The notes beneath the pieces were generated by a model. It saw nothing but the letters and a program-made list of their open reading frames with translations, was not told the origin of the DNA and made no database searches. A DNA stretch of 64,000 nt. Origin: an uncultured Bacillota bacterium. Lineage in GTDB: Bacteria; Bacillota_I; Bacilli_A; RF39; UBA660. Below are positions 15,952 through 51,419 of this stretch, one piece after another. The stretch is taken from positions 37,153 to 101,152 of the forward strand of contig CAUAFL010000001.1 in NCBI GenBank assembly GCA_958428295.1, written 5' to 3'. How positions within the stretch are numbered: position 1 is the first letter of the stretch; the number at the start of each line of letters is the position of its first letter. Position numbers and translations under genes: made by a program.

Positions 15952-16085
15952 ATTTATCATTATCATCACCTAATTCTACTATATCCATTGTCTAAAGAAT
16001 TTATACAAGTCTTATTTCGCTAAAATTATTAGACATTACTCCTCGGTTTTGATATACTTAACTTAGAATAAAAGAGGGTGTGACC

Positions 16086-17741
16086 ATGATTGAGACAATT
16101 GAAGTGGTAATGAATGGCCATAAAACGGCTGTTCCTTCAGGGACCACTTTATTACAGCTTAGTAAAGAGGTAGCGAAAGAGTATCGTTTTCCCATTATTA
16201 TTGCTACTGTCAATGGTAGTTATAAAGAGCTTAGTTATGTAGTCAACGATTCTTGTACGGTTGATTTTTTCGATTTGAATTCAAAAGTCGGAAATCGCAC
16301 CCATATTGCCGGACTTACCTTTTTATTGTTAGTAGCCGTTAAAGAGTTATATGGAGAAAAAGCGAATATTATTGTCCAGCATTCTCTAGATAAAGGTCTT
16401 TATATAGAAACAACTTTTCCAATAAGTACAACTTTAGTTAAATCCATTGGTAAGAAAATGTTACAATTGGTAGAGATGGATTTGTCGATTGCCAAGGTGA
16501 GTGTAGAACGGGTTTCTGCCATTCATTATTTTGAAAGTATAGAAGATATGGCCAAGGCCAATATTATGAAATATAATACCAATACTTTTGTCACTCTCTA
16601 TCGATTGAGTAATTATTATAATTACTTTTATCACCAAATGCCGCCTTCTACCTCAGTATTAAAAGATTTCAAACTCACTTATTTACATGATAATGGTTTT
16701 ATCTTGCAATTTCCAACGATTTATTCTAATAATCGAATTAAAGAATACGAACATCACCCCCATATGTTCCAAGTGTTTAAGGAATGCCATGACTGGGCAA
16801 AATTGATGAAAATAGAAAATTTGTCTGATTTAAATAGTATTGTATCACAAGGCAAAATTGATGATTTGATCCGTATTGATGAGACTTTACAAAGTAATCG
16901 TCTATTAGAGGTAGCGAAAAAAATTGTTGCTAAAAAAGATACTTTGAAAGTTATTTTGTTGGCAGGACCTTCTTCGTCTGGTAAGACGACGACTACTACT
17001 AAGTTATGTATGTACTTACAAAGTTTTGGTTTGCATCCTAAGATGCTTAGTATGGATGACTATTTTGTAGAACGCCAAGAAACACCGCTTAATGAAGAAG
17101 GACAGCCTGACTATGAGTGTTTTGAGGCTGTTGATACGAAGATGATGGCGGAGCAGATTGCTTTATTGTTAAAAGGTGAAACCGTTGTTGTGCCTGTTTA
17201 TAATTTTATTGAGGGAAAAAAGAATTTTGTTAAAGAACTTTTTCTTTTAGAAGATGATATTTTGTTAATTGAAGGAATTCATGCTTTAAACCCTGCTGTT
17301 TTAGATTCTATTCCCGCGATTCATAAGTTTAAAATTTATTTGTCGGCTTTAACGGAATTAAATATTGATAGTCATAACCGTTTCTCTACTACTGATAATC
17401 GTTTATTACGTCGGATGATTCGTGATAATCGTACTAGGGGGTATACCCCTGAAGATACGCTTAAGGTTTGGCCCAATGTTCGTACTGGGGAGGAAAAATT
17501 TATTTTTCCTTATCAAGATGAAGCAGATGTGACGATTAATACTGCTTTAATTTATGAACTAGGTGTGTTAAAAACATATGTTGAACCTTTATTATTTTCG
17601 GTTTCAGAAAATTCTCAGTATTATGAAGAAGCGAAACGCTTGTTAAATTTATTGCGTCTTATTTTACCTATTCCTAGTGAAGCTATTCCAGATGATTCTA
17701 TTATTCGAGAGTTTATTGGTGGTAGTTGTTTTCATGAATAA
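16086..17741 (+). CDS. TGS-domain / uridine-kinase-family nucleoside kinase fusion protein
   Basis: N-terminal ThrRS-like TGS domain and C-terminal P-loop kinase (LLAGPSSSGKTTTT) of the PRK/uridine kinase family. The ATG at 16086 follows an AAAGAGGG RBS. Confidence 0.65.
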   Translation: MIETIEVVMNGHKTAVPSGTTLLQLSKEVAKEYRFPIIIATVNGSYKELSYVVNDSCTVDFFDLNSKVGNRTHIAGLTFLLLVAVKELYGEKANIIVQHSLDKGLYIETTFPISTTLVKSIGKKMLQLVEMDLSIAKVSVERVSAIHYFESIEDMAKANIMKYNTNTFVTLYRLSNYYNYFYHQMPPSTSVLKDFKLTYLHDNGFILQFPTIYSNNRIKEYEHHPHMFQVFKECHDWAKLMKIENLSDLNSIVSQGKIDDLIRIDETLQSNRLLEVAKKIVAKKDTLKVILLAGPSSSGKTTTTTKLCMYLQSFGLHPKMLSMDDYFVERQETPLNEEGQPDYECFEAVDTKMMAEQIALLLKGETVVVPVYNFIEGKKNFVKELFLLEDDILLIEGIHALNPAVLDSIPAIHKFKIYLSALTELNIDSHNRFSTTDNRLLRRMIRDNRTRGYTPEDTLKVWPNVRTGEEKFIFPYQDEADVTINTALIYELGVLKTYVEPLLFSVSENSQYYEEAKRLLNLLRLILPIPSEAIPDDSIIREFIGGSCFHE

Positions 17742-32411: not shown

Positions 32412-32794
32412 GGGGATGTTTTGGTTTCGACAGGAATAGTAGAGCATAAATGGCAAGCCGTGTTGTTTACGTTACAAACAAACTTAAATATAACTGGAAA
32501 CAGTATTAAAACAGCACTTTCTAATTTATTTGGTGGAAACCAAGAATTAGCTATGGCCTAGTTTAGACAAGGTGCACTGTTACATTCGGATTTCCTATGT
32601 TCGTTTGTGATGGTTAATTTTAATAGGATATAATTATCTGATGATTTTAGGATAATTGAACTGAAAAATCTAGAATAGTCATTTGGTTGGTAATTCTCTG
32701 AAGACTATTTGAAACCTATAAGAATTACCTAAGCTTGTAGAAGTTTATGTAGCTCTATTTTTGGACAGGAGTTCGATTCTCCTCATCTCCACCA
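32412..32794 (+). ncRNA. ssrA: transfer-messenger RNA (tmRNA, SsrA)
   Basis: 5' GGGGAUGUUUUGGUUUCGACAGG and 3' GGACAGGAGUUCGAUUCUCCUCAUCUCCACCA form a tRNA-Ala-like acceptor stem with a G3:U70 pair and a T-arm. The region CTTAAATATAACTGG upstream of the tag ORF is conserved with B. subtilis ssrA. A TGcTATAAT extended -10 lies at about 32389-32399. Confidence 0.9.
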
Positions 32795-32830
32795 GTAAGC
32801 AATCTGTCCAGACTTTTATAGTTTAGGGCT
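32771..32830 (+). repeat. copy A of the island-array direct repeat (functional tmRNA 3' end plus ~35-nt flank ...aatctgtccagacttttatagttt)
   Basis: Degenerate copies of this segment recur at 38907, 41387, 43342 and possibly 44491. Confidence 0.6.
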
Positions 32831-32903
32831 TAAATATATAAGTATCAATTTCAAATAAGAAGTTGGTACTTTTTAATTGTTTAAGCAAAGGAGGACAGAT
32901 GAA

Positions 32904-33179
32904 ATGGTAACTATTACAAAGAAAGAATTAGAAATTGATAATGAATTAAAGAACAAAATAGAATTTATATGTAGTTTTTGTAATATTACTCCAACAATTA
33001 TCAATGGTAATATTAGAAAAATTAATAAGATAAATTTAAACTACATAGAACCTCATAGGGTTATTATTAAAGGCATCACATTTCTAGTATTTAATTATTC
33101 TAATGAAATCTTTATTGAGAATTTATCTAATAGAATTAAATTATCAGATTTAGAAACCTTTATTAAGCAATTAAACTAA
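32904..33179 (+). CDS. small island-encoded protein (~91 aa, single CxxC); paralog of 41530-41805
   Basis: ATG at 32904 follows an AAGGAGGA RBS; the ORF track starts at 32877. It shares the KNKIEFICSFC...YIEPHR.IIKGITFL.FNY...IENLSN core with the 41530 ORF. Confidence 0.55.
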   Translation: MVTITKKELEIDNELKNKIEFICSFCNITPTIINGNIRKINKINLNYIEPHRVIIKGITFLVFNYSNEIFIENLSNRIKLSDLETFIKQLN

Positions 33180-33350
33180 ATATAAGTTTTGTACCAACTT
33201 TTTCTAAAATTGTCTTAAAATAGACAAAAAATGGTAAATATGTCTTGATTTTACAATAAAAGAATCTATAATAGGAAAGCAATAAAGAAGTTTTATGTTT
33301 TGTGGGGTTAATATAAAACAAATTAATAAGCAACATATTGGAATTTATGA

Positions 33351-35217
<1,867 letters not shown>

Positions 35218-35454
35218 TAAGCAGTGCTTAATATTTTATCAAAAGTCTTGTGTAGTTTTATTTCATTACGAAGTTTTGAAATAATACGAAATAAGGCAGG
35301 TGGTTTCTAAGGTTGCCTAAACCTTAGCTCCCCAGATTTTGATATGAGCGAAGTGAGATGTCAAAATCTATAGGGGGTTAGAGATTTTGTCAAGAGCAAA
35401 ATTACCCTACTATAAATAGTAGGACTCTAATATACAAAAGGGGGAATATAAAAT
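35218..35454 (+). other. candidate oriT/nic region upstream of mob (three inverted repeats)
   Basis: Inverted repeats ctaaggtt-gccta-aaccttag (about 35300-35320), tgtcaaaatct-N12-agattttgtca and cctacta-taaa-tagtagg, plus a cttgtgtagtttt run reminiscent of pMV158-family nic sites. Confidence 0.4.
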
Positions 35455-36807
35455 ATGGAAGATAAGGAAGAATTATCTTATTCATTACATTTAAGCAATG
35501 ATAAAAATAAATCTAAAAAAGCAAGAAGAAGTGTAAAAAATACTGAAACTGGAACTACTTCTCTATCTAATAATGCGATACAAAACCATCAGCAATTATC
35601 AAAAGTTAATAAACATAATTTAAGAAAATATGATGAGGAACAAGAATTAATTTGTACGATTAAAGGAACATCATCTATTGTTGAAGATACTAAAAATTTG
35701 TATTTAGATTTATTTGAAGATGCAAGAATTAAGTATAACGAAAAACAAACTAGAAATGATAGAAAAATAGAAAATTATTTTAATCATATCTCTAGTGATA
35801 ATAAAAGAGATCTTGCTTGTGAGATTATTATTGAACTTGGAGATATGGATTTTTGGGTAGATAAAGATAATAAATTTAAGAAGAAAATGACAGAAGTTTT
35901 TAAAGAACAAATAATAGATTTAGAAGAAGTTGTACCTAATTTTAGAATTGCTAATGCCACCATTCACTATGATGAATCTAGTCCACATTTACATATAGTT
36001 GGTGTCCCATTTAAAGATGGAATGAAAAATGGTATGGAAAAACAAGTTGGTAAAAGTGATGTCTTTAATAAAATAAGTTTAAAAGAAATTCAAGATAAAA
36101 TGAGAGAATATTGTGTTAATTCATTCAATAGAATTTATCACTTAAACTACACTCTTAAAGAAAAAGAAGAAGGCAGAAATGTTGATATTAATGTTGCTAA
36201 TATGAATGAATATAAAAAATTTAAACGAGAACAAGAGAAATATAAAAAACAACTTATAGGATTGAATAATAAAGCAGATGAATTACAAAATAAATCTAAT
36301 GAGATAAATGATATTATTGATAATCTAAAACCTACTATTATGAATAAAAATAACTACTCTATTTCAAGTGATGAAGTAAATAAAATTAAAAAATATATAG
36401 AGCAAACTAATGATACCACTTCTAATTTAAGAGATTCTAATGATATAAATATAGTCTTAAAAAAATATGAAGATGATTTAAGAGAACACTCTAACGAAGT
36501 TAGAAACTTAAAGAAGAAAATCAAAACTCGTGATGATAGAATTGAAGAATTAGAATATAATTTAGACAATGCCAATGACACTATTTATGAATTAGAAAAT
36601 AAGGTATCAAAATTAGAAGAAACACTAAATTACTTTAAAGAGTTATGGGATAAGTTTATTAAATTCCTACAAGACAAATTCTTCTCTAGCAATAAATATG
36701 ATGACTTAATAAATGATTTATATGATGAAGAAATACTTGATGATAATGAGTTAGATATAATACAAAATAATTCAAAAAGTAAAGAAGATTTTGATAGAAA
36801 TTTATAG
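35455..36807 (+). CDS. mob: Mob/Pre (MobV-family) plasmid recombination/mobilization relaxase
   Basis: Conserved Mob_Pre motif III HYDESSPHLHIVGVP and an N-terminal relaxase domain. The C-terminal half is a long coiled coil typical of MobM-like proteins. Confidence 0.8.
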   Translation: MEDKEELSYSLHLSNDKNKSKKARRSVKNTETGTTSLSNNAIQNHQQLSKVNKHNLRKYDEEQELICTIKGTSSIVEDTKNLYLDLFEDARIKYNEKQTRNDRKIENYFNHISSDNKRDLACEIIIELGDMDFWVDKDNKFKKKMTEVFKEQIIDLEEVVPNFRIANATIHYDESSPHLHIVGVPFKDGMKNGMEKQVGKSDVFNKISLKEIQDKMREYCVNSFNRIYHLNYTLKEKEEGRNVDINVANMNEYKKFKREQEKYKKQLIGLNNKADELQNKSNEINDIIDNLKPTIMNKNNYSISSDEVNKIKKYIEQTNDTTSNLRDSNDINIVLKKYEDDLREHSNEVRNLKKKIKTRDDRIEELEYNLDNANDTIYELENKVSKLEETLNYFKELWDKFIKFLQDKFFSSNKYDDLINDLYDEEILDDNELDIIQNNSKSKEDFDRNL

Positions 36808-36866
36808 TAAATCATATCTAAATATAAGAAAATTTGTTATAATATGAATTAAGAAGAAAACTACTT

Positions 36867-37370
36867 ATGGAGGTAATTAATATAGATTATAAAATAGAAA
36901 TGGCAAAACTAGAAGACCTAGATGCTATTGATAAATTGATATATGATAGATGCTTATGGTTTAGAGAAAAAGGTGTTAAAGGATGGAGTGTAGATTTCTA
37001 CCCTAATAAATATGACAAAAGTTATTTTATAGAACAAATGAAAATTAATAAATTATTTGTTGCAAAGTTTAATAATAAAATATGTGGTGTTATGCTTTTA
37101 AAAAATGAAGATAAAGATTATTGGAACAATGATGATACTTCTTACTATATTCATCATTTAGCAACTGATGTTAATTTAAAAGGTGTTGGTAAGGCATTGA
37201 TTAATTATGCGATTGAACAATGTAAAATAAATAATAAAAAATATTTAAGACTTGATTGTTATCAAGAAAGTAAATTTCTCAATGAACATTATGAAAAACT
37301 GGGTTTTAACAAAGTTGGAAGTGGAACAGATGAAAATTATAATTTTAATTTATGGGAGATGAAAATATAA
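36867..37370 (+). CDS. GNAT-family N-acetyltransferase
   Basis: 167 aa with an acetyl-CoA binding motif (HLATDVNLKGVGKALINYAIE). Confidence 0.7.
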   Translation: MEVINIDYKIEMAKLEDLDAIDKLIYDRCLWFREKGVKGWSVDFYPNKYDKSYFIEQMKINKLFVAKFNNKICGVMLLKNEDKDYWNNDDTSYYIHHLATDVNLKGVGKALINYAIEQCKINNKKYLRLDCYQESKFLNEHYEKLGFNKVGSGTDENYNFNLWEMKI

Positions 37371-37371
37371 T

Positions 37372-37938
37372 ATGAATACAATAGAATCAATAGAAAATAG
37401 AAGAAGTATTAGACTTTTTAAGAGTGACGATATATCAAAAGAAATAGTTGAAGATATATTAAATTGTGGGAGACTTGCTCCATCTGCAAAAAATAGACAA
37501 CCTTGGTATTTTGTAATAACAAAAGGTAAAACAAAAGATAAAATAGCAGATATGATGATAGAATATACTATAAAAAATGATGATACTATTGAAAGAAAAA
37601 ATTTAGGTTGTGCAAGTAGTGTTAATCCAACAGCAAATGTAATAAAACAAGCACCAATATTAGTTTTAATATTTAGAGAAAAAAATGATAATTGGATTAT
37701 AGGAGATAATCTATCAATAGGTGCTTGTGTAGAAAATATGTGTTTAAGAGCAACTGAGTTAAAAATAGGTACTTTATGGATTAGAGATACTGTATATGTT
37801 GCAGAAGATGTGGCTAAAATGTTGAATCACGAAAATATGGAATTAAATTGTGCTTTAGCACTTGGATATGCAAATCAAAATCCAAAGCAAAGACCTAGAA
37901 AAGAATTAAAAGATATTGTGGAGTGGTTTGATGAATAA
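37372..37938 (+). CDS. nitroreductase-family protein
   Basis: N-terminal RRSIR motif (IENRRSIRLF) and PSAKNRQPW, characteristic of the NADH oxidase/nitroreductase fold. Confidence 0.7.
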   Translation: MNTIESIENRRSIRLFKSDDISKEIVEDILNCGRLAPSAKNRQPWYFVITKGKTKDKIADMMIEYTIKNDDTIERKNLGCASSVNPTANVIKQAPILVLIFREKNDNWIIGDNLSIGACVENMCLRATELKIGTLWIRDTVYVAEDVAKMLNHENMELNCALALGYANQNPKQRPRKELKDIVEWFDE

Positions 37939-38011
37939 GAAAATATTAGATTTTTATAAGTAAACAAGTTTATATACAGATTTAGGGTTATATAAAGAAT
38001 TTGCTAAACAA

Positions 38012-38821
38012 TTGACTAATGATATAGATGAATTATGTGTACTTCAAAGAATGCAAATTATACATCCTATTGCTTATAATGATTTAGATATAAGAAAACA
38101 TAGTAAATGTTTTTGGGGAGATATGACAAAAGTTCCAATTACAAGATTAGATTATGAAGATGATTTGTTTCCTACTGCTTTAAGTATGTTACATGAATTA
38201 TTAAGAAAAGATAATGAATATCATAATGATCGAAAAGCAGAAGATAAAATTCATGTTACTTGTAGAGGATAAGCAATATTGTTAGCAAGTATATTAAAAG
38301 CAAAAGGATATTCTGTAAGAGTTAGAAGTGGTTTTGCTCCATATATCAAATATGATGGTGTTAATTATGACCATTGGATTACTGAATATTTTGATGAAAA
38401 TAAGAATAGATGGGTTTTGGTAGATGCTGATGAACATTGTCCAGATCATGAAATGGGATTTGATTTAAATGATATTCCAAGAAATAAATTTGTTTTTGGT
38501 GCTGAAGCATATTTAGGAATGAGAAATAAAAAGTATAAAGATGAAAAAATATATTATTCTTCTGATCCAGCAACTTTAGGATTAAAAGCAAGTATTCGTG
38601 GTTTGTTTTATGATTTTCATTCACTTATGAATGATGAAATAATCTTTTTACATTTACCAAAATATATTCAAGATAAAAAATTTGAGTTAAGTGAAGAAGA
38701 ATATGTAGAACTAGATAACTTGGCAGAATTATTACTAGATCCAGATAAAAATTTTGACAAAATATTAAACATTTGGAATACAAATCCTAAATTTAGAATA
38801 ATGTCAGGGGCATTAAATTAA
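38012..38821 (+). pseudogene. transglutaminase-like cysteine-peptidase-domain gene interrupted by an in-frame TAA at the conserved Tyr position
   Basis: ORFs 38012-38272 and 38279-38821 are in the same frame, separated by a TAA at 38270-38272. Read through, the sequence gives VTC-R-G-[*]-AILLASILKAKGYSVRVRSGF, matching the TGase core C-x-x-[YF]-A...LLRA.GIPAR with the stop in place of the aromatic residue. The downstream His (DHW) and Asp (WVLVDAD) of the triad are present. Confidence 0.6.
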
Positions 38822-38906
38822 TAAATTTTGATAAAACATATTTGATTATTTAATTAAATGGTTTATAATTATATTAAGAAATATTGTATTGGTTACTTAC
38901 TTTAGC

Positions 38907-38941
38907 GAAAAAAGTTTGAAATAACTTTCTTACTCGCACCA
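38907..38941 (+). repeat. copy D of the degenerate tmRNA 3'-end repeat (gaaaaaagtttgaaataactttcttactcgcacca)
   Basis: It resembles tmRNA 32738-32794 with the T-arm deleted and ends in the acceptor-like gcacca. It is followed by ttattcgaattattcgaa. Confidence 0.45.
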
Positions 38942-39120
38942 TTTAAAAATTTATTCGAATTATTCGAATTTGAAATTACTTTCAATCTTATATAAGATTG
39001 ATTTTTTTTAATCAATCATTATGTTTAATACATCTTTATCAAAAAAAGACTATCAATTTTATTTGATAATCTAATCAATAAATTATAATATATATTACTT
39101 CTTCATTTTTTACTAAATTA

Positions 39121-39879
39121 CTATTTGTCTATTTTTTTTGGACAAGTATATTTTGGTAATCCTACACTATGTTTTCCATATTCAATCGCACCGGTTGGAC
39201 AATGAGAAATGCAAGCCATACAATGTACACATCTTTTATCCCACTTTGGTTTTTTATTTTCTAGGATAATATTTTTAGTAGGGCATACTTTTTCACATTT
39301 CCCACAAGAAATACATGTGTCTTTTGCATAAAATTTTTTTGATTTTACAAATATCGGATAAAACAATACATTTACAATACTACTATTTAAGCGATCGAGT
39401 ATTGTAATTTTCTTTGCTCTTTCTTTTTCTTCATTTTTTATGATTTGTGCTGTCTGTTCTATTTTTATTTCTGATTTATCAATTATTTTTAAAGCTTCTT
39501 CTTTAGTTGGAGTAGTAAAAAGTGCTACGTAATTTTCTGGCATAACAATTTCGAGGCATCCAGAATAATTCATTTCTTTCTTTTTACATAGTTTTTTTAG
39601 ATATTTTTCTGCATTTCCGATACTACCACCACAAGTCATTACAAAATAGATGTTTTTATTTCCCGTTAATTCTGTTTTTTCTAGCCACCTTTGTAATAGT
39701 CTTGGTATTCTCCAAGCGTATGTTGGTGTAACAATTACAAATGATGTTTCTGAATTTATGCTTGCGTAATCTTTCTCCTTTATTTTTTTAAATAAATTTA
39801 TTATTTTCTCATTATTTATTTTAGCAATTCTTTTTGCTACATATGCACTGTTCCCAGTTCCAGAGAAATATAAGATCAT
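39121..39879 (-). CDS. flavodoxin-like / 2x[4Fe-4S] ferredoxin fusion protein (EFR1-type)
   Basis: N-terminal flavodoxin-like MILYFSGTGNS and two C-terminal CxxCxxCxxxCP clusters (CISCGKCEKVCP, CVHCMACISHCP). Confidence 0.7.
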   Translation of the reverse strand: MILYFSGTGNSAYVAKRIAKINNEKIINLFKKIKEKDYASINSETSFVIVTPTYAWRIPRLLQRWLEKTELTGNKNIYFVMTCGGSIGNAEKYLKKLCKKKEMNYSGCLEIVMPENYVALFTTPTKEEALKIIDKSEIKIEQTAQIIKNEEKERAKKITILDRLNSSIVNVLFYPIFVKSKKFYAKDTCISCGKCEKVCPTKNIILENKKPKWDKRCVHCMACISHCPTGAIEYGKHSVGLPKYTCPKKIDK

Positions 39880-40342
39880 ACATTTTTCCTCCTTTATTAA
39901 TTACTCTTTGTTTATAAAAAATAGTATAACATTTATCGTATTATGATGCTAGACTGTATCTATTTTCAAAATAAATAAAGTATTTAATCTAGTTAATAGA
40001 TTATTTAATACTGGAATTTATGTAAATCATCAGATTATTGATAAAATGTATTTCTTCAAGAGTTAATTGACCATAATGATTTGAATCCACAAACTTAGAA
40101 TTGGTATATCTACCAATTTCTACCGTGCTAAGATTTCATTTTTCTAATTCTTCTAAGGGAAAAACATTACAAAAAAAATTGCATCAAAAGTAGAAAAGAT
40201 TCTAGTTGTCAAATGAAGTAACTTGGTTTGCCGAAACTATTTTACTACCCTTGTATTAGGTGATTAGATGGAAAAATTAGAATAGACAAGATTAGGACAT
40301 TTATACCGTTGGAGTTATGATTCTTATAAATATGCAATTGGA

Positions 40343-40627
40343 TTGTTGATGGCTAATATTGTTGTCAATTCATTGGTTAATGAAAAAAATTTATCTAAGG
40401 AATCTAAAATTAAACCTATGAATTTTGATGTTATGTGCCAAAGATTAAAAAGTGAGAGAATAAAAGCCGACCTATCTCAAAAGCAAGTAGCCCATATTAT
40501 CGGCATTACTCAATCTCACTATGCTACTTATGAAAAAGGTAATAATACCATTCCGATAACTAGGCTCATTAAACTTTCTAAAACATATAAGGTTTCTATT
40601 GATTATTTAATGGGAAAATGTAATTAG
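40343..40627 (+). CDS. XRE-family helix-turn-helix transcriptional regulator
   Basis: HTH_3 motif (LSQKQVAHIIGITQSHYATYEKG). The start is uncertain: the ORF-track start is a TTG at 40343, with ATGs at 40349 and 40418. Confidence 0.6.
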   Translation: MLMANIVVNSLVNEKNLSKESKIKPMNFDVMCQRLKSERIKADLSQKQVAHIIGITQSHYATYEKGNNTIPITRLIKLSKTYKVSIDYLMGKCN

Positions 40628-40711
40628 AGTACAAGAAATTGTGCTTTTTCTTTTTATAAAAAAGGGCTATCAATTTCACTCGATAGCCTAGTAATTTTGA
40701 AATGTATCAGT

Positions 40712-41227
40712 TTAAGTTAGATGGAATATCATTTTTTCTATAACTTCAACAGTAGTTAAATCCATGGATACTTTACCATAATAGTCATCAGCATTACACG
40801 AGTATTCGTAGTAAATATATTTTGCATCATTTCCTAATACACGATCTAATCTACCTATACCATTATCATCTTTCAAAATCATTAAGTTACTATTTGGAGA
40901 ATAAACTTTTTCCCATTCTTAATATTATAGCCACTATTGCTATAACCTAATAAATATACCGTATTATCATTCCAAGTGATATGATGACTTTCTATATCGT
41001 AGTTATCTAATACATTAAAAGTCCATATTTTTTGATAATTTTGATATTCTGTATTTTTATACATTGAATAAACATTAGTTTCTGCCAATTCTTCTGATAA
41101 AGTTATACTCTGATATAATATTTAAATCATTTCTATTGAGATTTTCTGATTTTGAATTATCATTGTTGCTAGTGCAACCTACAACAGTAATCATTAAAAC
41201 GATAAATAATAAAATAGTTTTTTTCAT
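40712..41227 (-). pseudogene. frameshifted lipoprotein gene (N-terminus MKKTILLFIVLMITVVGCTSN...)
   Basis: The reverse strand reads as a lipoprotein signal peptide with a lipobox (VVGCT), then shifts frame twice (MAETNVYSMYK... then ...DDNGIGRLDRVLGNDAKYIYYEYSCNADDYYGK...). The three frames are contiguous. The plus-strand hairpin at 40664-40690 serves as its terminator. Confidence 0.55.
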
Positions 41228-41386
41228 AACTTTTGAACTCACTTTCGGATATTTATTTGCTATTAAAATTATTATACCGCTTTTTCCTAAACTAAAAATG
41301 TATTTTATTTGTAGTAAATGTATTTTAAAATAGTAAAAAATGTAATATAATGTAGTTAGTGATTGGTTACCATATCAATTCCTTTT

Positions 41387-41450
41387 GAAAAAGTTGTAGA
41401 TAACTTTCTCAACCGCACCAGAGAAGAATCTGCTCGAACTTTTATAGTTT
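41387..41450 (+). repeat. copy B of the degenerate tmRNA 3'-end repeat plus homologous flank (…aaccgcacca gagaagaatctgctcgaacttttatagttt)
   Basis: The flank matches the sequence downstream of ssrA (gtaagcaatctgtccagacttttatagttt), and homology continues about 40 nt toward the small paralog gene. Confidence 0.55.
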
Positions 41451-41529
41451 TGAGTTTAAAGATAAATATCAATTCTAGAAATGAAATTGATTTTTTTTGA
41501 TGTTCAAAGAAAGTGAGGAGATTCTTAAA

Positions 41530-41805
41530 ATGGTAACAATAAAAAATGAAAAAATCGAAGTGGAAGAAGCACTTAAAAATAAGATTGAATTTATTTGTAG
41601 TTTTTGTGGTACTACACCTATTATTTATAATGGAAATATAAAAATGATAGAACACACGAATTTACAATATATAGAACCCCATAGAATTATTATTAAAGGT
41701 ATTACCTTTCTAGCATTTAACTATGAGAATACTCTTTATATAGAAAACTTAAGTAATGCTATTCCACTTAACGATTTAGAACAATATATTAAATCAATCA
41801 ACTAG
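41530..41805 (+). CDS. small island-encoded protein, paralog of 32904-33179
   Basis: ATG at 41530 follows a GAGGAG RBS; the ORF track starts at 41497. It is roughly half identical to the first copy by eye and sits in the same position relative to the repeat. Confidence 0.55.
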   Translation: MVTIKNEKIEVEEALKNKIEFICSFCGTTPIIYNGNIKMIEHTNLQYIEPHRIIIKGITFLAFNYENTLYIENLSNAIPLNDLEQYIKSIN

Positions 41806-42188
41806 TAAAAGATTATCAATTCCTTTTCTACTATTTACCTATGTGTTAAACAAAGAAAAAGAAATTGCCCAAATTTCGCATACTTTTTGCACAAAATTTA
41901 CAATATATTTGCCTAGACATTGCATTATTCACTCTGTTAATATGGTAATGTAATCAATATAAATGCGATTTAGTGTACGATTTGCAACCGATTAGTTTAC
42001 TATTCGACTACTAAAAAATACAATTTAGTTTATTGTTTAAAGCAAGTCAAGATGTTATTATGGTTTTGTATATTATTTTTGTATTTATTTTAGATTATTT
42101 TTATGTTTTTGAGTAGATTTTTTACCATAAATTTCTTATAAAATTAAAAGATATTTATTAATTTAATTACGAAAGGGATGATTTTAAA

Positions 42189-43277
42189 ATGAAGATAATT
42201 AATCCAAAAGTTGGAAATATAGAAGAAATAATACAACCTATAGATGACCTAATAATTTTAGGATTATCACGAATAGCTTTTAAATGTAATAAAGAGACAG
42301 AATCTTATAATTTAAGAGATGAATTATATGCATCTAAGTATAAGCCAACTGGGTTAGAAGGAAAAGAAATAGAATTAGAAAAATTTTTACAGCAACAAAT
42401 CGGTGAAAACTTGAGAATTAAAAATCAAAATAAAGAGTATAAATGGGTGATTATTAATGAAAAAAATATAGGAGAAACCAGTCATAGGTTTTATATTGCT
42501 CCGAAACCGGAAAATATGCACGAAATTGTTTTTGAGCTTGTTAAACAGTTCGTTTCACAAAACATTCCAGTTAAATTTAAATATCAATTGACCAGTGGAA
42601 TGGGACAATGCGACAGAATGATTATTTATAGTGATTTTGATAACAAAGACAGAATTGAATCTCAAATAAAAAAAGTTTATCAACAAAATCAAAATTTATT
42701 TAGCGGATGTGAAAGATCATTAGCTTGGTTATATACAACAAGTGTTCCTGATGTGTATCTTGCACCAGAAACACCAAGTGAAGCATATAGTAATAGGTTA
42801 ACAGAAGTTATAATGACAGCTAAAAATACTTTTAATTTTCTTTATGGTATTACTAATAGTAATCAAAAAATTACTTTGGCAGGGAAAAATGCAGAAAAAG
42901 CATTAGAGTATATGAAAATGTTAATAGGCTCTTTGATGTTAAGAAAAGGAATACTGTTGTCAAAAGATGGAAAATGTATAACTATTAAAGATAAAAATGT
43001 TAAAACTTCATATGATTTTAATTCAGGAATATTAGAAAATTTTAATATGGATTCTCGTGGGTTTTATTCAGTAAAATTTTTCCCAACTGATGAAGGAAGA
43101 AATGCACTTTTAGATAATTTTTATAGTGTATCATCAATAAGCGAGCAACCTGGATTAGAAATAAAGTATTTAACACCTGAACAAAGAAAAGAGGAACTTG
43201 ATAGAATTTTTTATCCATATAAGTATATTAATCAACAAACTTCAACGCAAACAATCGATAATAGCCCAAAAAGATAA
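42189..43277 (+). CDS. hypothetical protein, 362 aa (possible nucleotidyltransferase-like motif S-G-x11-D-F-D)
   Basis: Good RBS (AAAGGGATG). No confident family assignment. The segment KFKYQLTSGMGQCDRMIIYSDFD fits the hG[GS]-x9-13-Dh[DE] pattern of polymerase-beta-fold nucleotidyltransferases. Confidence 0.45.
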   Translation: MKIINPKVGNIEEIIQPIDDLIILGLSRIAFKCNKETESYNLRDELYASKYKPTGLEGKEIELEKFLQQQIGENLRIKNQNKEYKWVIINEKNIGETSHRFYIAPKPENMHEIVFELVKQFVSQNIPVKFKYQLTSGMGQCDRMIIYSDFDNKDRIESQIKKVYQQNQNLFSGCERSLAWLYTTSVPDVYLAPETPSEAYSNRLTEVIMTAKNTFNFLYGITNSNQKITLAGKNAEKALEYMKMLIGSLMLRKGILLSKDGKCITIKDKNVKTSYDFNSGILENFNMDSRGFYSVKFFPTDEGRNALLDNFYSVSSISEQPGLEIKYLTPEQRKEELDRIFYPYKYINQQTSTQTIDNSPKR

Positions 43278-43341
43278 TTATAATTTTAGAAAATAATGGT
43301 ATAATTTAGTTAGTGACTGATTTAAACATTAATTACCTTTG

Positions 43342-43420
43342 GTAAAAAGTTGTAGATTACTCCTCATCACCACTATTGGGAAATCTGTTCGAAAAGCATG
43401 AACTTTTGATAAATAATCAA
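43342..43420 (+). repeat. copy C of the degenerate tmRNA 3'-end repeat (…gttgtagattactcctcatcaccact attgggaaatctgttcgaaaagcatgaacttttgataaat)
   Basis: It keeps the tcctcatc(a)cca(ct) acceptor-proximal segment and the aatctgYYcgaa flank. Confidence 0.5.
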
Positions 43421-44844: not shown

Positions 44845-46113
44845 ATGAAAAAATTGAAACTTTGGCATTTTGCAGTTATTCTCGGTGTGGTATTAATAAT
44901 TGTTTATATGGTGCCATATTGTTGTATTACAATTAAGGTACATGGGGATCAGATCATGGAAGTTGATTATGCTGCTAGTTACCAGGAATTGGGAGCAGAG
45001 GCATCCTTTTTTGGAAAAAAGTTGCAGGTTACTATTACCGGAAAGGTGGATACTAGTAAATTAGCTACGCAAACTGTGCAATATGCAGTAAAGAATAAAT
45101 TAGGTGTTGTTAAAAAAGAAAAACGAATAATCAAAATTGTTGATCGGGTAGCACCAAAATTAACATTACAAGGGGAAAACGTGGTGACGATTCGTCAAGG
45201 AGAGAAGTATATTGATCCGGGATATACATTAATTGATAATGTAGAAGGAGATATTTCTAAGCGAGTTGTTATTTCAGGAAAAGTAAATTCTGATAAAATT
45301 GGAACTTATGAATTAAAATATGTAGGAAAGGATAGTTTTGCGAATGCAAGTAGCGCTAAAAGAACGGTGAAAGTCATTGCTAAAGAGATAAGTTATATTG
45401 ATGCTTATGATAATATTGATAATTCGGCTCGGACTTGGTGGAGTGGCAATAAAAAAGATAATAAAATTCCTTTGGAGGGCGCCGCTGCAACAAAAGAGGA
45501 GCTTAAGAAATATCAAGCTTATTATTTAGGTCCAGATGACAAGGTAATTTATTTAACTTTTGATGAGGGAAGTAATGATACTTATGTAAAAGAGATTATG
45601 GAGGTACTTAATAACAATCAGGTCAAAGGAACATTCTTTTTCTGTGGAAATTATGTGGTAACTAATCCTGAAGTGATGAAAGCGCTTGTTAAAAGCGGCC
45701 ATTCTGTGGGAAATCACACCTACCATCATAAGTCGATGTATCAGTATGCCACTAGGGAGAGTTTTCAACAGTTCATTCAAGAAATACGTGATGTGGAAAC
45801 GGCTTTTTATGATATTACAGGAACTAATATGGATAAGGTTTATCGGGAACCTCGTGGAGATTGGAGTTATCGCGATTTACAAATTGTTAAAGATATGGGA
45901 TATAAAACTTTCTTTTGGAGTGCTGATTATTATGATTTTGCAGGAACTACGGCTAAAGAAATCGCACTTACTAGTTGGCTACAAAAATATCATAATGGTG
46001 CTATTTATTTAATCCATCCAAAAAATAAGGGTAATTATGAAGCATTAGATGATTTTATTAAAGAAATGAAAAAAAGAGGATATCGATTTGATTTAGTGAA
46101 GAATATTACGTAA
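44845..46113 (+). CDS. membrane-anchored polysaccharide deacetylase (NodB domain) with an Ig-like (DUF5011-type) domain
   Basis: N-terminal TM helix and an Ig-like domain (DRVAPKLTL...DPGYT..DNVEGDIS). The NodB catalytic motifs are present (LTFDEGSND...HSVGNHTYHH). It is PdaA/YlxY-like. Confidence 0.7.
   Translation: MKKLKLWHFAVILGVVLIIVYMVPYCCITIKVHGDQIMEVDYAASYQELGAEASFFGKKLQVTITGKVDTSKLATQTVQYAVKNKLGVVKKEKRIIKIVDRVAPKLTLQGENVVTIRQGEKYIDPGYTLIDNVEGDISKRVVISGKVNSDKIGTYELKYVGKDSFANASSAKRTVKVIAKEISYIDAYDNIDNSARTWWSGNKKDNKIPLEGAAATKEELKKYQAYYLGPDDKVIYLTFDEGSNDTYVKEIMEVLNNNQVKGTFFFCGNYVVTNPEVMKALVKSGHSVGNHTYHHKSMYQYATRESFQQFIQEIRDVETAFYDITGTNMDKVYREPRGDWSYRDLQIVKDMGYKTFFWSADYYDFAGTTAKEIALTSWLQKYHNGAIYLIHPKNKGNYEALDDFIKEMKKRGYRFDLVKNIT

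Positions 46114-51343: not shown

Positions 51344-51419
<76 letters not shown>

Follow-up and report, generated by a model that had tools for sequence, protein, structure and literature searches.

A small protein family encoded next to a large serine recombinase in mobilizable islands inserted at the 3' ends of tmRNA and tRNA genes

The window analysed here is a stretch of 64,000 nucleotides from an uncultured Bacillota bacterium (GTDB lineage Bacilli_A; RF39; UBA660), located at positions 37,153 to 101,152 of contig CAUAFL010000001.1 (GenBank assembly GCA_958428295.1). Behind the tmRNA gene ssrA the G + C content is 0.23-0.28, versus approximately 0.34, and this low-G + C stretch runs to approximately 45 kb. 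Within it are two paralogous genes of 91 codons, here called p91 copy 1 and copy 2, which had been picked out in an earlier reading made from the sequence alone (the sequence-only reading). Both open reading frames (ORFs) were confirmed, and their products are 65% identical over 91 of 91 residues without gaps (BLASTP E=5e-43). The ratio of nonsynonymous to synonymous substitution rates (dN/dS) was 0.20 between the two copies and 0.05-0.39 against relatives; because of these low values, the ORFs are regarded as genuine coding genes and not as chance ORFs. The central features of the locus are as follows.

32412..32794, plus strand: tmRNA gene ssrA (ARAGORN; Rfam RF00023 at 149.9 bits); its 3' CACCA at 32790-32794 forms the left junction of the array
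32904..33179, plus strand: p91 copy 1, 91 aa, opening the complete element E1; dN/dS 0.09-0.2
33424..35217, plus strand: large serine recombinase (LSR) of E1; Pfam Resolvase, Recombinase and Zn_ribbon_recom
35455..36807, plus strand: MobV/Mob_Pre relaxase of E1; Pfam PF01076 at 5e-16, NCBIfam MobV
41530..41805, plus strand: p91 copy 2, 91 aa, intact, in the recombinase-less element E3; dN/dS 0.10-0.39 against relatives

Both p91 copies are genuine, folded proteins under purifying selection. Copy 1 opens E1 (32795-38941, approximately 6.1 kb), a complete element which, because it combines an LSR with a MobV relaxase, is classified as an integrative mobilizable element (IME). E1 has its own integrase and its own relaxase and is bounded by att junctions, and the space between its ORFs is too small for a type IV secretion system. 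The left leader and right arm that bound it are of the kinds found at the ends of homologous elements elsewhere. Alignment of homologs indicates that the true start of the LSR is probably MNEEKK at 33424; a longer ORF, from 33373, begins within a terminator (T2, see below). Matches of the LSR to the NCBIfam models XisF and CcrB were below the cut-offs.

The two p91 genes had been read as marking the left ends of two island segments, each directly behind a copy of the tmRNA 3' end and preceded by a homologous leader. The leader homology was confirmed (32782-32838 versus 41408-41464, 74% identity over 57 nt). Copy 1 indeed starts 109 nt past the true tmRNA 3' end at 32794, but the sequence ahead of copy 2 (...CAACCGCACCA, ending at 41420) is the right-end arm of the preceding element and not a tmRNA copy. 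It has only a T-arm-like hairpin and CACCA in common with the tmRNA end (66% identity over 29 nt). Array junctions were found at 32794, 38941, 41420 and approximately 43375. The further junctions at 38941 and approximately 43375 therefore make the island a tandem array of about four elements (E1 to E4) instead of two segments, with a recombinase and a relaxase in the first element only. E3 (41421-43377) consists of p91 copy 2 plus one cargo gene; as noted earlier, the segment with copy 2 has no recombinase, according to the ORF list of the window and a Pfam scan.

To place p91 in a wider context, 80 loci with p91 were surveyed in contigs from one genome per species. Together with loci collected earlier these gave 85 distinct copies; the loci were almost all from uncultured gut Bacilli, Erysipelotrichaceae or "Tenericutes" metagenome-assembled genomes. 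Essentially all 85 copies are located approximately 100 nt past an ...NCCA junction: 57 begin 98-142 nt past a tRNA or tmRNA gene, 25 follow the ...NCCA arm of another element in a tandem array, and 3 are unclear. The targets comprise 15 tRNA species (Thr x3, Leu x4, Gly x2, Phe, Arg, Cys, His and Val) plus tmRNA. Close homologs of p91 (95% identity) are found with the same trio of p91, LSR and Mob_Pre relaxase at tRNA-Thr(ggt) or tRNA-Leu(tag), and there the element sequence opens with an identical GTAAGCAATCTGTCC directly past CCA. A cognate LSR was present within approximately 1.7-1.8 kb in 46 of the 70 p91 copies with enough downstream sequence and absent in 24.

The association was also examined from the other side, in an independent sample of 80 metagenome loci picked by the recombinase at 58-88% identity. 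Among the 70 loci with at least 700 nt of upstream sequence, 67 had p91 within 1.8 kb upstream of the LSR; of the remaining three, one had p91 further upstream and two had disrupted 5' regions. Directly after a tRNA or tmRNA gene were 53 of 65 testable loci. This survey added tRNA-Met and tRNA-Leu(taa), bringing the targets to 17 tRNA species in all, plus tmRNA. The order within the elements is fixed: a conserved terminator hairpin and the ribosome-binding site come first, then p91, then the LSR, which has a promoter and an attenuator of its own, and usually a MobV relaxase follows. Both surveys lend strong support to the suggestion that p91 is specific to the element and linked to att and the recombinase: the homologs are not scattered without recombinases or att sites, and no clear unrelated annotation was found. 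Co-occurrence with serine recombinases thus held, but an association specific to ssrA did not; the finding is more general than first noted and extends to many tRNA genes beyond ssrA.

Within the elements, p91 follows the recombinase. In 32 complete elements the pairwise identity of p91 correlated with that of the LSR (Pearson 0.77) and less with that of the Mob protein (0.41). Some pairs of elements have 96-99% identical p91 and 92-97% identical LSRs, with Mob only 44% identical. The LSR at locus L014 (1153-2886), only 38-41% identical to that of the window, also has a diverged p91 homolog between the tRNA-CCA and the LSR, and no Mob match was found in that element. A diverged p91 homolog likewise accompanies the still more distant LSR of locus L071 (139-1941, minus strand), whose downstream side ends at the contig end; in both loci p91 is in the slot between the tRNA-CCA with its terminator hairpin and the recombinase. 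Furthermore, p91 was intact wherever an LSR was present (41 of 41 copies), while among the 24 copies without one 19 were intact and 5 were truncated or contained stops. This confinement of damage to LSR-less copies has a one-sided hypergeometric probability of approximately 0.005. Judged from these genomic associations, p91 belongs to the recombination module and not to the transfer module.

The p91 family is large. A protein collection clustered at 90% contained 1870 matches (751 representatives at 50% identity), none named beyond "hypothetical protein" and none with a Pfam domain. No significant match was obtained for p91 in Pfam, PHROGs, NCBIfam or PADLOC, which agrees with the earlier statement that no family could be recognised: no library searched held an annotation. 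With hmmscan against Pfam at E up to 0.1, copy 1 matched no family and copy 2 only CoiA_N, below threshold. A profile search of PDB sequences gave no significant match; the best resemblance was to the RNP2/helix-1 segment of U1A (22 residues, E=0.14-0.16, sub-significant). Residues F25, N34, G35, T43, N44, Y47, F63 and N73 hardly vary in an alignment of diverse members. The CxxC motif, noted earlier as a mark of these proteins, occurs in copies 1 and 2 but does not define the family; its second Cys is mostly replaced, by S, T, A, N or other residues, while its first varies in some members. A zinc-ribbon or CxxC metal binder with four Cys/His ligands was rejected, as there is a single CxxC and its Cys residues are not conserved. 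Longer members were considered as informative domain fusions and rejected; they are gene-calling chimeras with insertion sequence or permease fragments. The AlphaFold2 (AF2) model of p91, made from a 25-sequence alignment, has a pLDDT of 90.6 and a predicted order of strand, helix, seven short strands and helix. Foldseek searches with this model against PDB and BFVD returned nothing below E=0.1, and tblastn found no homologs in plasmid and phage collections. We conclude that p91 is a large uncharacterised family with a confidently predicted fold and no structural relative in PDB or BFVD.

Insertion takes place exactly at the ...C-N-CCA end of the 17 tRNA species and tmRNA, and near-identical elements are found at different RNA genes. 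Examples of such insertions are loci L001 (9814-9887), L002 (9804-9887), L044 and L056. Alignment and nhmmer searches showed a conserved right-end arm of approximately 85 nt at the right boundary of homologous elements in many genomes. Its parts are, in order, a TATAAT box (in many cases with an extended -10), one hairpin, a second hairpin that is T-arm-like (AAAGTT and AACTTT separated by 7 nt), a heptamer resembling an acceptor strand, and N-CCA. At locus L001 the last 12 nt of the arm (16038-16126) are identical to the 3' end of tRNA-Leu(tag). When a cognate right arm is joined to its leader, CTTACTCG-CA-CCAGTAAG results, an 18-bp near-palindrome whose centre is the last acceptor base plus the discriminator; in the L066 lineage the joined core is CGACAATGG-CA-CCATTGACG. 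From this near-palindromic attP core, reconstructed from right arms and leaders, we infer that the crossover dinucleotide in the window would be the CA at 32790-32791. The end structure would fit a serine-recombinase core with a C72-N73 crossover dinucleotide. Such a crossover would explain why one element type is found at tRNA-Thr(ggt), tRNA-Leu(tag) and tmRNA (with recombinases 88-94% identical), and also the near-identical left ends after tRNA-Phe and tRNA-Leu(gag). For elements at tRNA-Cys the arms end in CTCCA, which corresponds to U73, the discriminator in tRNA-Cys and tRNA-Gly. A search for right arms of elements at tRNA-His or tRNA-Gly found none, and the exact cognate attP junction pattern of excised circles was not found in metagenome contigs. 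Literature searches yielded no report of a serine recombinase with this tRNA/tmRNA-end target.

On both sides of p91 there are conserved expression signals, located in E1 as follows.

32795..32903, plus strand: E1 leader, with recombinase-side arm GTAAGCAATCTGTCCAGAC (32795-32813), hairpin 1, T1 and ribosome-binding site AAGGAGG (32888-32894)
32842-32852 and 32859-32869: terminator-like hairpin T1 (terminator scan), GTATCAATTTC paired with GAAGTTGGTAC, with a T-run at 32870-32874
33191..33200, plus strand: motif Z, GTACCAACTT, the exact complement of the T1 3' arm, just past the p91 stop codon
33245..33388, plus strand: LSR control region, with promoter-like TTGATT-16-TATAAT at 33245-33272 (10/12 match)
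33295-33366, plus strand: short leader ORF ahead of the LSR, opening with T and G homopolymer tracts and running into T2
33349-33388, plus strand: terminator T2, strong and GC-rich with 16 pairs, directly followed by the LSR ribosome-binding site and ATG (33424)

The leader architecture is common to sites after 15 tRNA species and tmRNA: an arm NNNNNNAATCTGYYCGAAC at the junction, hairpin 1, an AT-rich stretch, hairpin T1 with its T-run, and a strong ribosome-binding site 10-45 nt further on. In an alignment of 47 leaders, T1 has 12 pairs, 5 of them with compensatory double changes, as well as many G.U pairs and a conserved T-run. The G.U pairs are taken to point to RNA structure on the coding strand. 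The stretch from T1 to the p91 ribosome-binding site was examined for a sigma-70 promoter, and none was convincing. The p91-LSR spacers (51 distinct) share one layout, with a near-consensus promoter TTGACT/TTGACA-17-TATAAT. In them the short leader ORF begins ATG-T(4-5)-G(T)G(4-5), and its frame differs between lineages (e.g. L002, L010, L014, L059 and L044), so that it either stops after 5-7 codons or reads into T2. This could constitute translation-coupled attenuation, perhaps phase-variable via homopolymer slippage. Because p91 is without a recognisable promoter of its own while the LSR has its own attenuated unit, p91 would be transcribed from outside the left end.

In addition, short motifs complementary to the two T1 arms (X and X') are found elsewhere in the elements. 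Motif Y, just past the -10 box of the right arm, is the exact complement of the T1 5' arm and occurs in at least two sequence classes in complete elements: GAAATTGATAC against GTATCAATTTC in class 1 and TGATTGATTCT against AGAATCAATCA in class 2. It is near the predicted transcript start (16053-16063 in L001; 12024-12034 in L068). The predicted Y:X duplex has -13 kcal/mol versus -10 to -11 for T1 (z approximately -6 against shuffles). Motif Z, 10-20 nt past the p91 stop, is exactly complementary to the T1 3' arm over 8-11 nt in 27 of 65 distinct loci, against a mean of 3-4 nt in shuffled sequences, and co-varies with the T1 sequence. Y:X and X':Z form perfect Watson-Crick duplexes, whereas the local hairpins use G.U. 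These motifs could act as an antiterminator working only with joined ends, as a trans-acting small RNA or as a device for pairing mRNA ends. E1 itself has a 10-nt deletion in its right arm (38880-38890, compared with the arms of L001, L009, L011, L016 and L019) by which motif Y was lost, so that E1 may be impaired in whatever Y does.

The remaining features of the array are listed below.

36867..38821, plus strand: E1 cargo, with a 167-aa ORF, a 188-aa ORF and a gene split in two ORFs
38856..38941, plus strand: E1 right-end arm, with TATAAT box and T-arm-like hairpin AAAGTT-TGAAATA-AACTTT, ending ...TTACTCGCACCA (nhmmer 1e-14)
38942..41420, plus strand: E2, decayed, with a leader remnant and without p91, recombinase or relaxase
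41337-41420: E2 right-end arm, with an outward promoter-like site at 41324-41351
41421..41529, plus strand: E3 leader, with arm GAGAAGAATCTGCTCGAAC, hairpin ATCAATT (41468-41474)/AATTGAT (41485-41491), T-run at 41492-41498 and a ribosome-binding site
42189-43277, plus strand: E3 cargo, a 362-aa ORF with a weak, sub-threshold match to Gad1 (anti-Gabija; E=0.002)
43291..43377, plus strand: E3 right-end arm, carrying TGGTATAAT
43378..~44500, plus strand: E4, a remnant with a leader-like left end (TA)TTGGGAAATCTGTTCGAA and a 298-aa ORF, without p91

From their sequence appearance only, we take the 167-aa ORF of E1 to be GNAT acetyltransferase-like and the 188-aa ORF to be nitroreductase-like. The ORFs at 38012-38272 and 38279-38821 resemble two parts of a single gene interrupted by a frameshift or stop; neither had a significant Pfam match, and L040 (9020-9913) has the ELCVLQR motif found here in an unbroken ORF of 297 aa. 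The cargo of E2 includes a helix-turn-helix protein and a 252-aa ORF on the minus strand. A leader of the E3 type also precedes complete elements after tmRNA (L049) and tRNA-Thr (L071). The right boundary of E4 is approximate, and the low G + C content ends near 45000; a match at 45010-45035 was considered as the right end of the array and rejected, being inside a core gene at only E=0.095. The tmRNA was the sole Rfam match across the island. Besides ssrA, the window contains genes for RNase R, a CapA-like protein and smpB (ORF list). Its tRNA-Thr(cgt) gene (51344-51419) is unoccupied, with its native terminator behind it, and is a candidate empty attB; this tRNA gene is used as a target in other genomes (L058, L064, L066, L071 and L014).

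Similar tandem arrays were seen in L040, L053, L047, L012 and L050, and cargo differs between otherwise near-identical elements. In L001 (15246-16007) and L002 (14229-14990) it includes a metallo-beta-lactamase-fold protein of the anti-Pycsar Apyc1 family PF23023. Locus L080, where a recombinase is directly upstream of p91, was considered as an independent gene order and rejected, since another type of element that targets ssrA adjoins there in tandem. In five loci an unrelated LSR (26-30% identical) is present on the opposite strand just downstream of p91, at these positions.

L021 4084-5565, minus strand: unrelated LSR
L029 6554-8311, minus strand: unrelated LSR
L035 1119-2981, minus strand: unrelated LSR, standing between p91 and the cognate recombinase
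L050 2697-4529, minus strand: unrelated LSR
L052 1474-3252, minus strand: unrelated LSR

This arrangement suggests a second element that targets that spot inside the IME. Other element types abut ...NCCA junctions as well (L080 3752-5985; L014 347-420; L068 12087-12150; the right flanks of L018 and L043, GATTGATAGAAAACTCGAACTTTTCGAG...). One of them has a different, 520-aa serine recombinase at its right end, and others carry left-end leaders of distinct types, which were also seen in unrelated genomes. Several element families appear to share the tRNA and tmRNA ends of these bacteria as landing pads.

As to the function of p91, we tentatively favour, with something short of even confidence, that it is a dedicated accessory protein of the integration/excision module of these IMEs at tRNA and tmRNA 3' ends, acting on the LSR. 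Its transcription would enter from outside the left end, either by read-through from the tRNA or tmRNA promoter while the element is integrated, or from the outward promoter of a right-end arm once the two ends have been joined, in a circle or in an array. As transcription would cross the junction, the dosage of p91 would report the state of that junction, and p91 would act on the LSR by setting its direction or efficiency. As a classical recombination directionality factor (RDF), p91 would promote attL x attR recombination; this form of the proposal is possible but doubtful. Another kind of recombinase cofactor, for instance one made from the circle that promotes integration, seems on the unlikely side. 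An LSR-based element needs a way to excise, which counts in favour of the proposal. The lack of homology to RDFs is not evidence against an RDF, because known RDFs are small and have no common fold. No RDF has been proposed for serine-recombinase IMEs (PMC5704250).

Several points weigh against a role on the recombinase. Every surveyed locus was picked via p91 or the LSR, mostly from metagenome-assembled genomes or metagenome contigs, and the tie between the two is one of genomic association. Domain-wise distance correlation over 106 pairs gave no extra coupling of p91 to the zinc-ribbon/coiled-coil region of the LSR, to which known RDFs bind; the strongest partial correlations were with the genetically nearest, N-terminal LSR domains, which is what plain linkage predicts, so that they do not point to a contact region on the LSR. 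About one third of the p91 copies are without an LSR, most of them intact with low dN/dS, which could mean a recombinase-independent function. The LSR carries a C-terminal extension of approximately 120-145 residues, and such extensions may block the RDF site (PMC12286644); the Tn4451 recombinase needs no RDF (PMC5704250). Finally, should Y act as an antiterminator of T1 in the circle, production of p91 would coincide with the need for integration, which is not when a classical RDF should be present. This last point can be turned into a different proposal, in which p91 would be the read-out of an RNA switch that senses joined ends, serving as an integration-side directionality factor or target-capture cofactor. 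The outward transcript of the right arm would begin with motif Y, complementary to the T1 5' arm; transcripts across the joined attP would escape T1 and yield p91, tRNA read-through would be terminated, and the partner LSR would recognise a generic tRNA 3' end (T-arm, acceptor strand, discriminator and CCA). To our knowledge, an integration-side cofactor of this kind has not been described for serine recombinases, and we consider the proposal decidedly improbable.

The complementary motifs also bear on the possibility that p91 regulates gene expression of the element, as an RNA binder at T1/T2 or as a DNA-binding repressor at the ends. Co-varying motifs of 8-11 nt (Y, X/X' and Z) surround the p91 gene, which is bracketed by two conserved terminators with the LSR directly behind T2, and the order of regulator before target fits; yet the motifs vary by lineage while the conserved residues of p91 do not. 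The weak local likeness to the U1A RNA-recognition motif would suit an RNA binder, but it falls short of significance and is limited to the C-terminal strand and helix. Moreover, no fold match to known RNA- or DNA-binding domains was found with Foldseek in PDB and BFVD, and p91 is only mildly basic, with 12 Lys/Arg versus 10 Asp/Glu counted from its sequence. Regulation strikes us as an unlikely explanation. The recombinase-less copies raise another one, namely that p91 occupies the first-expressed slot with a selfish or establishment function (anti-defence, addiction or host-modulating) independent of recombination. The 19 intact copies among these 24 have low dN/dS (0.10 for the solo pair of copy 2 and L053), very small derivatives keep p91 and both ends (in L027 the right arm is approximately 165 nt past the p91 stop), and some cargo is anti-defence-like (PF23023 Apyc1 in L001 and L002, the weak Gad1 match in E3). 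Against this, p91 has no match in PADLOC, PHROG or Pfam and no homolog in plasmid and phage collections, which would be unusual for a general anti-defence gene. Its position never changes, nor does the recombinase clade with which it is paired, whereas all cargo and even the relaxase have been swapped between elements. Damaged p91 is seen only after loss of the recombinase. We rate this explanation as less likely still than regulation. That same exchange of the relaxase module led us to reject a relaxosome role for p91. Most complete elements carry p91 together with a MobV relaxase, which would suit a transfer (relaxosome/oriT) accessory; however, Mob is 44% identical between elements with 96-99% identical p91, L014 has p91 and an LSR without a Mob match, L011 likewise has none before its right arm, and p91 and mob are on opposite sides of the recombinase, all of which makes such an accessory very improbable.

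In the reading best supported by these sequence comparisons, p91 would be an accessory protein of the recombination module in a large, apparently undescribed family of mobilizable islands targeting tRNA and tmRNA ends. LSRs are leading tools for genome engineering, and their reversal needs the cognate directionality factor. Identifying these factors is difficult, as they have no sequence, fold or synteny in common. Here a candidate partner of an LSR is found at a fixed place across hundreds of variants; if its function is confirmed, this would be a ready-made library of recombinase/cofactor pairs. The target, the last bases of many tRNA genes and tmRNA, is unusual. The elements are abundant in uncultured gut Bacilli and form tandem arrays, some with cargo annotated as anti-defence, and their terminators, outward promoter and co-varying complementary motifs suggest an RNA-based circuit controlling mobility. 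Even if p91 has no role as a recombinase cofactor, it remains a large family of unassigned structure that occupies a highly specific niche in the genome.

Among known systems, the RDFs of LSRs (SprB of SPbeta, Orf7 of TP901-1, gp47 of Bxb1 and gp3 of phiC31) resemble p91 in being small, element-encoded and tied to one LSR. A lack of relationship in sequence or fold to anything else, as in p91, is typical of RDFs, which have no common fold or synteny, and recombinases with long C-terminal extensions may lack one (PMC12286644). No sequence or fold homology of p91 to a characterised RDF was found in Pfam, PHROG, NCBIfam, PDB or Foldseek searches of PDB and BFVD. Unlike phage RDFs, which are generally without synteny to the integrase, p91 is strictly syntenic as the first gene at the left junction, upstream of the LSR. 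It is located in mobilizable islands and not in phages, and its expression would depend on transcription across the att junction.

Tn4451/Tn4453, with the LSR TnpX, the Mob/Pre protein TnpZ and the small proteins TnpV and TnpW, is likewise a small mobilizable element of Firmicutes with a C-terminally extended LSR and a Mob_Pre relaxase. In Tn4451, expression is linked to the joining of the ends in the circular form. By analogy, a similar link between expression and the junction is possible in the p91 elements, with the difference that here the recombinase has its own promoter and p91 would be the gene that depends on the junction. The Pfam models of TnpV and TnpW did not match p91 at E up to 0.1. 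Tn4451 has a low target specificity and needs no RDF (PMC5704250), whereas the p91 elements insert precisely at ...C-N-CCA tRNA/tmRNA ends.

The ssrA islands of Dehalococcoides (DsiB/DsiA) likewise form tandem arrays downstream of ssrA with an LSR module beside attL, and their recombinase-less members were read as cis-mobilizable or as fixed remnants (PMC3146451). Those islands are inserted in the T-loop of tmRNA, with a 20-bp direct repeat per boundary (PMC3146451). In the p91 elements, by contrast, the junction is at the last acceptor base plus the discriminator, and only CCA is common. In the window no extended tmRNA repeat was found downstream, BLASTN of the tmRNA 3' region giving only matches of 13-14 nt, and the junctions share just ...CACCA. 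In addition, the Dehalococcoides integration module consists of six reverse-strand genes without p91, and the p91 elements also use many tRNA genes.

Finally, the array in the window recalls the accretion of cis-mobilizable elements at tRNA genes of Firmicutes (PMC5704250), as E2 to E4 are likewise att-bounded, without recombinase or relaxase, and in tandem with a complete element. According to the same 2017 review, serine-recombinase IMEs integrate inside protein-coding genes (PMC5704250). The cis-mobilizable systems of Firmicutes mostly use tyrosine integrases (PMC5704250), whereas the p91 elements use a serine recombinase.

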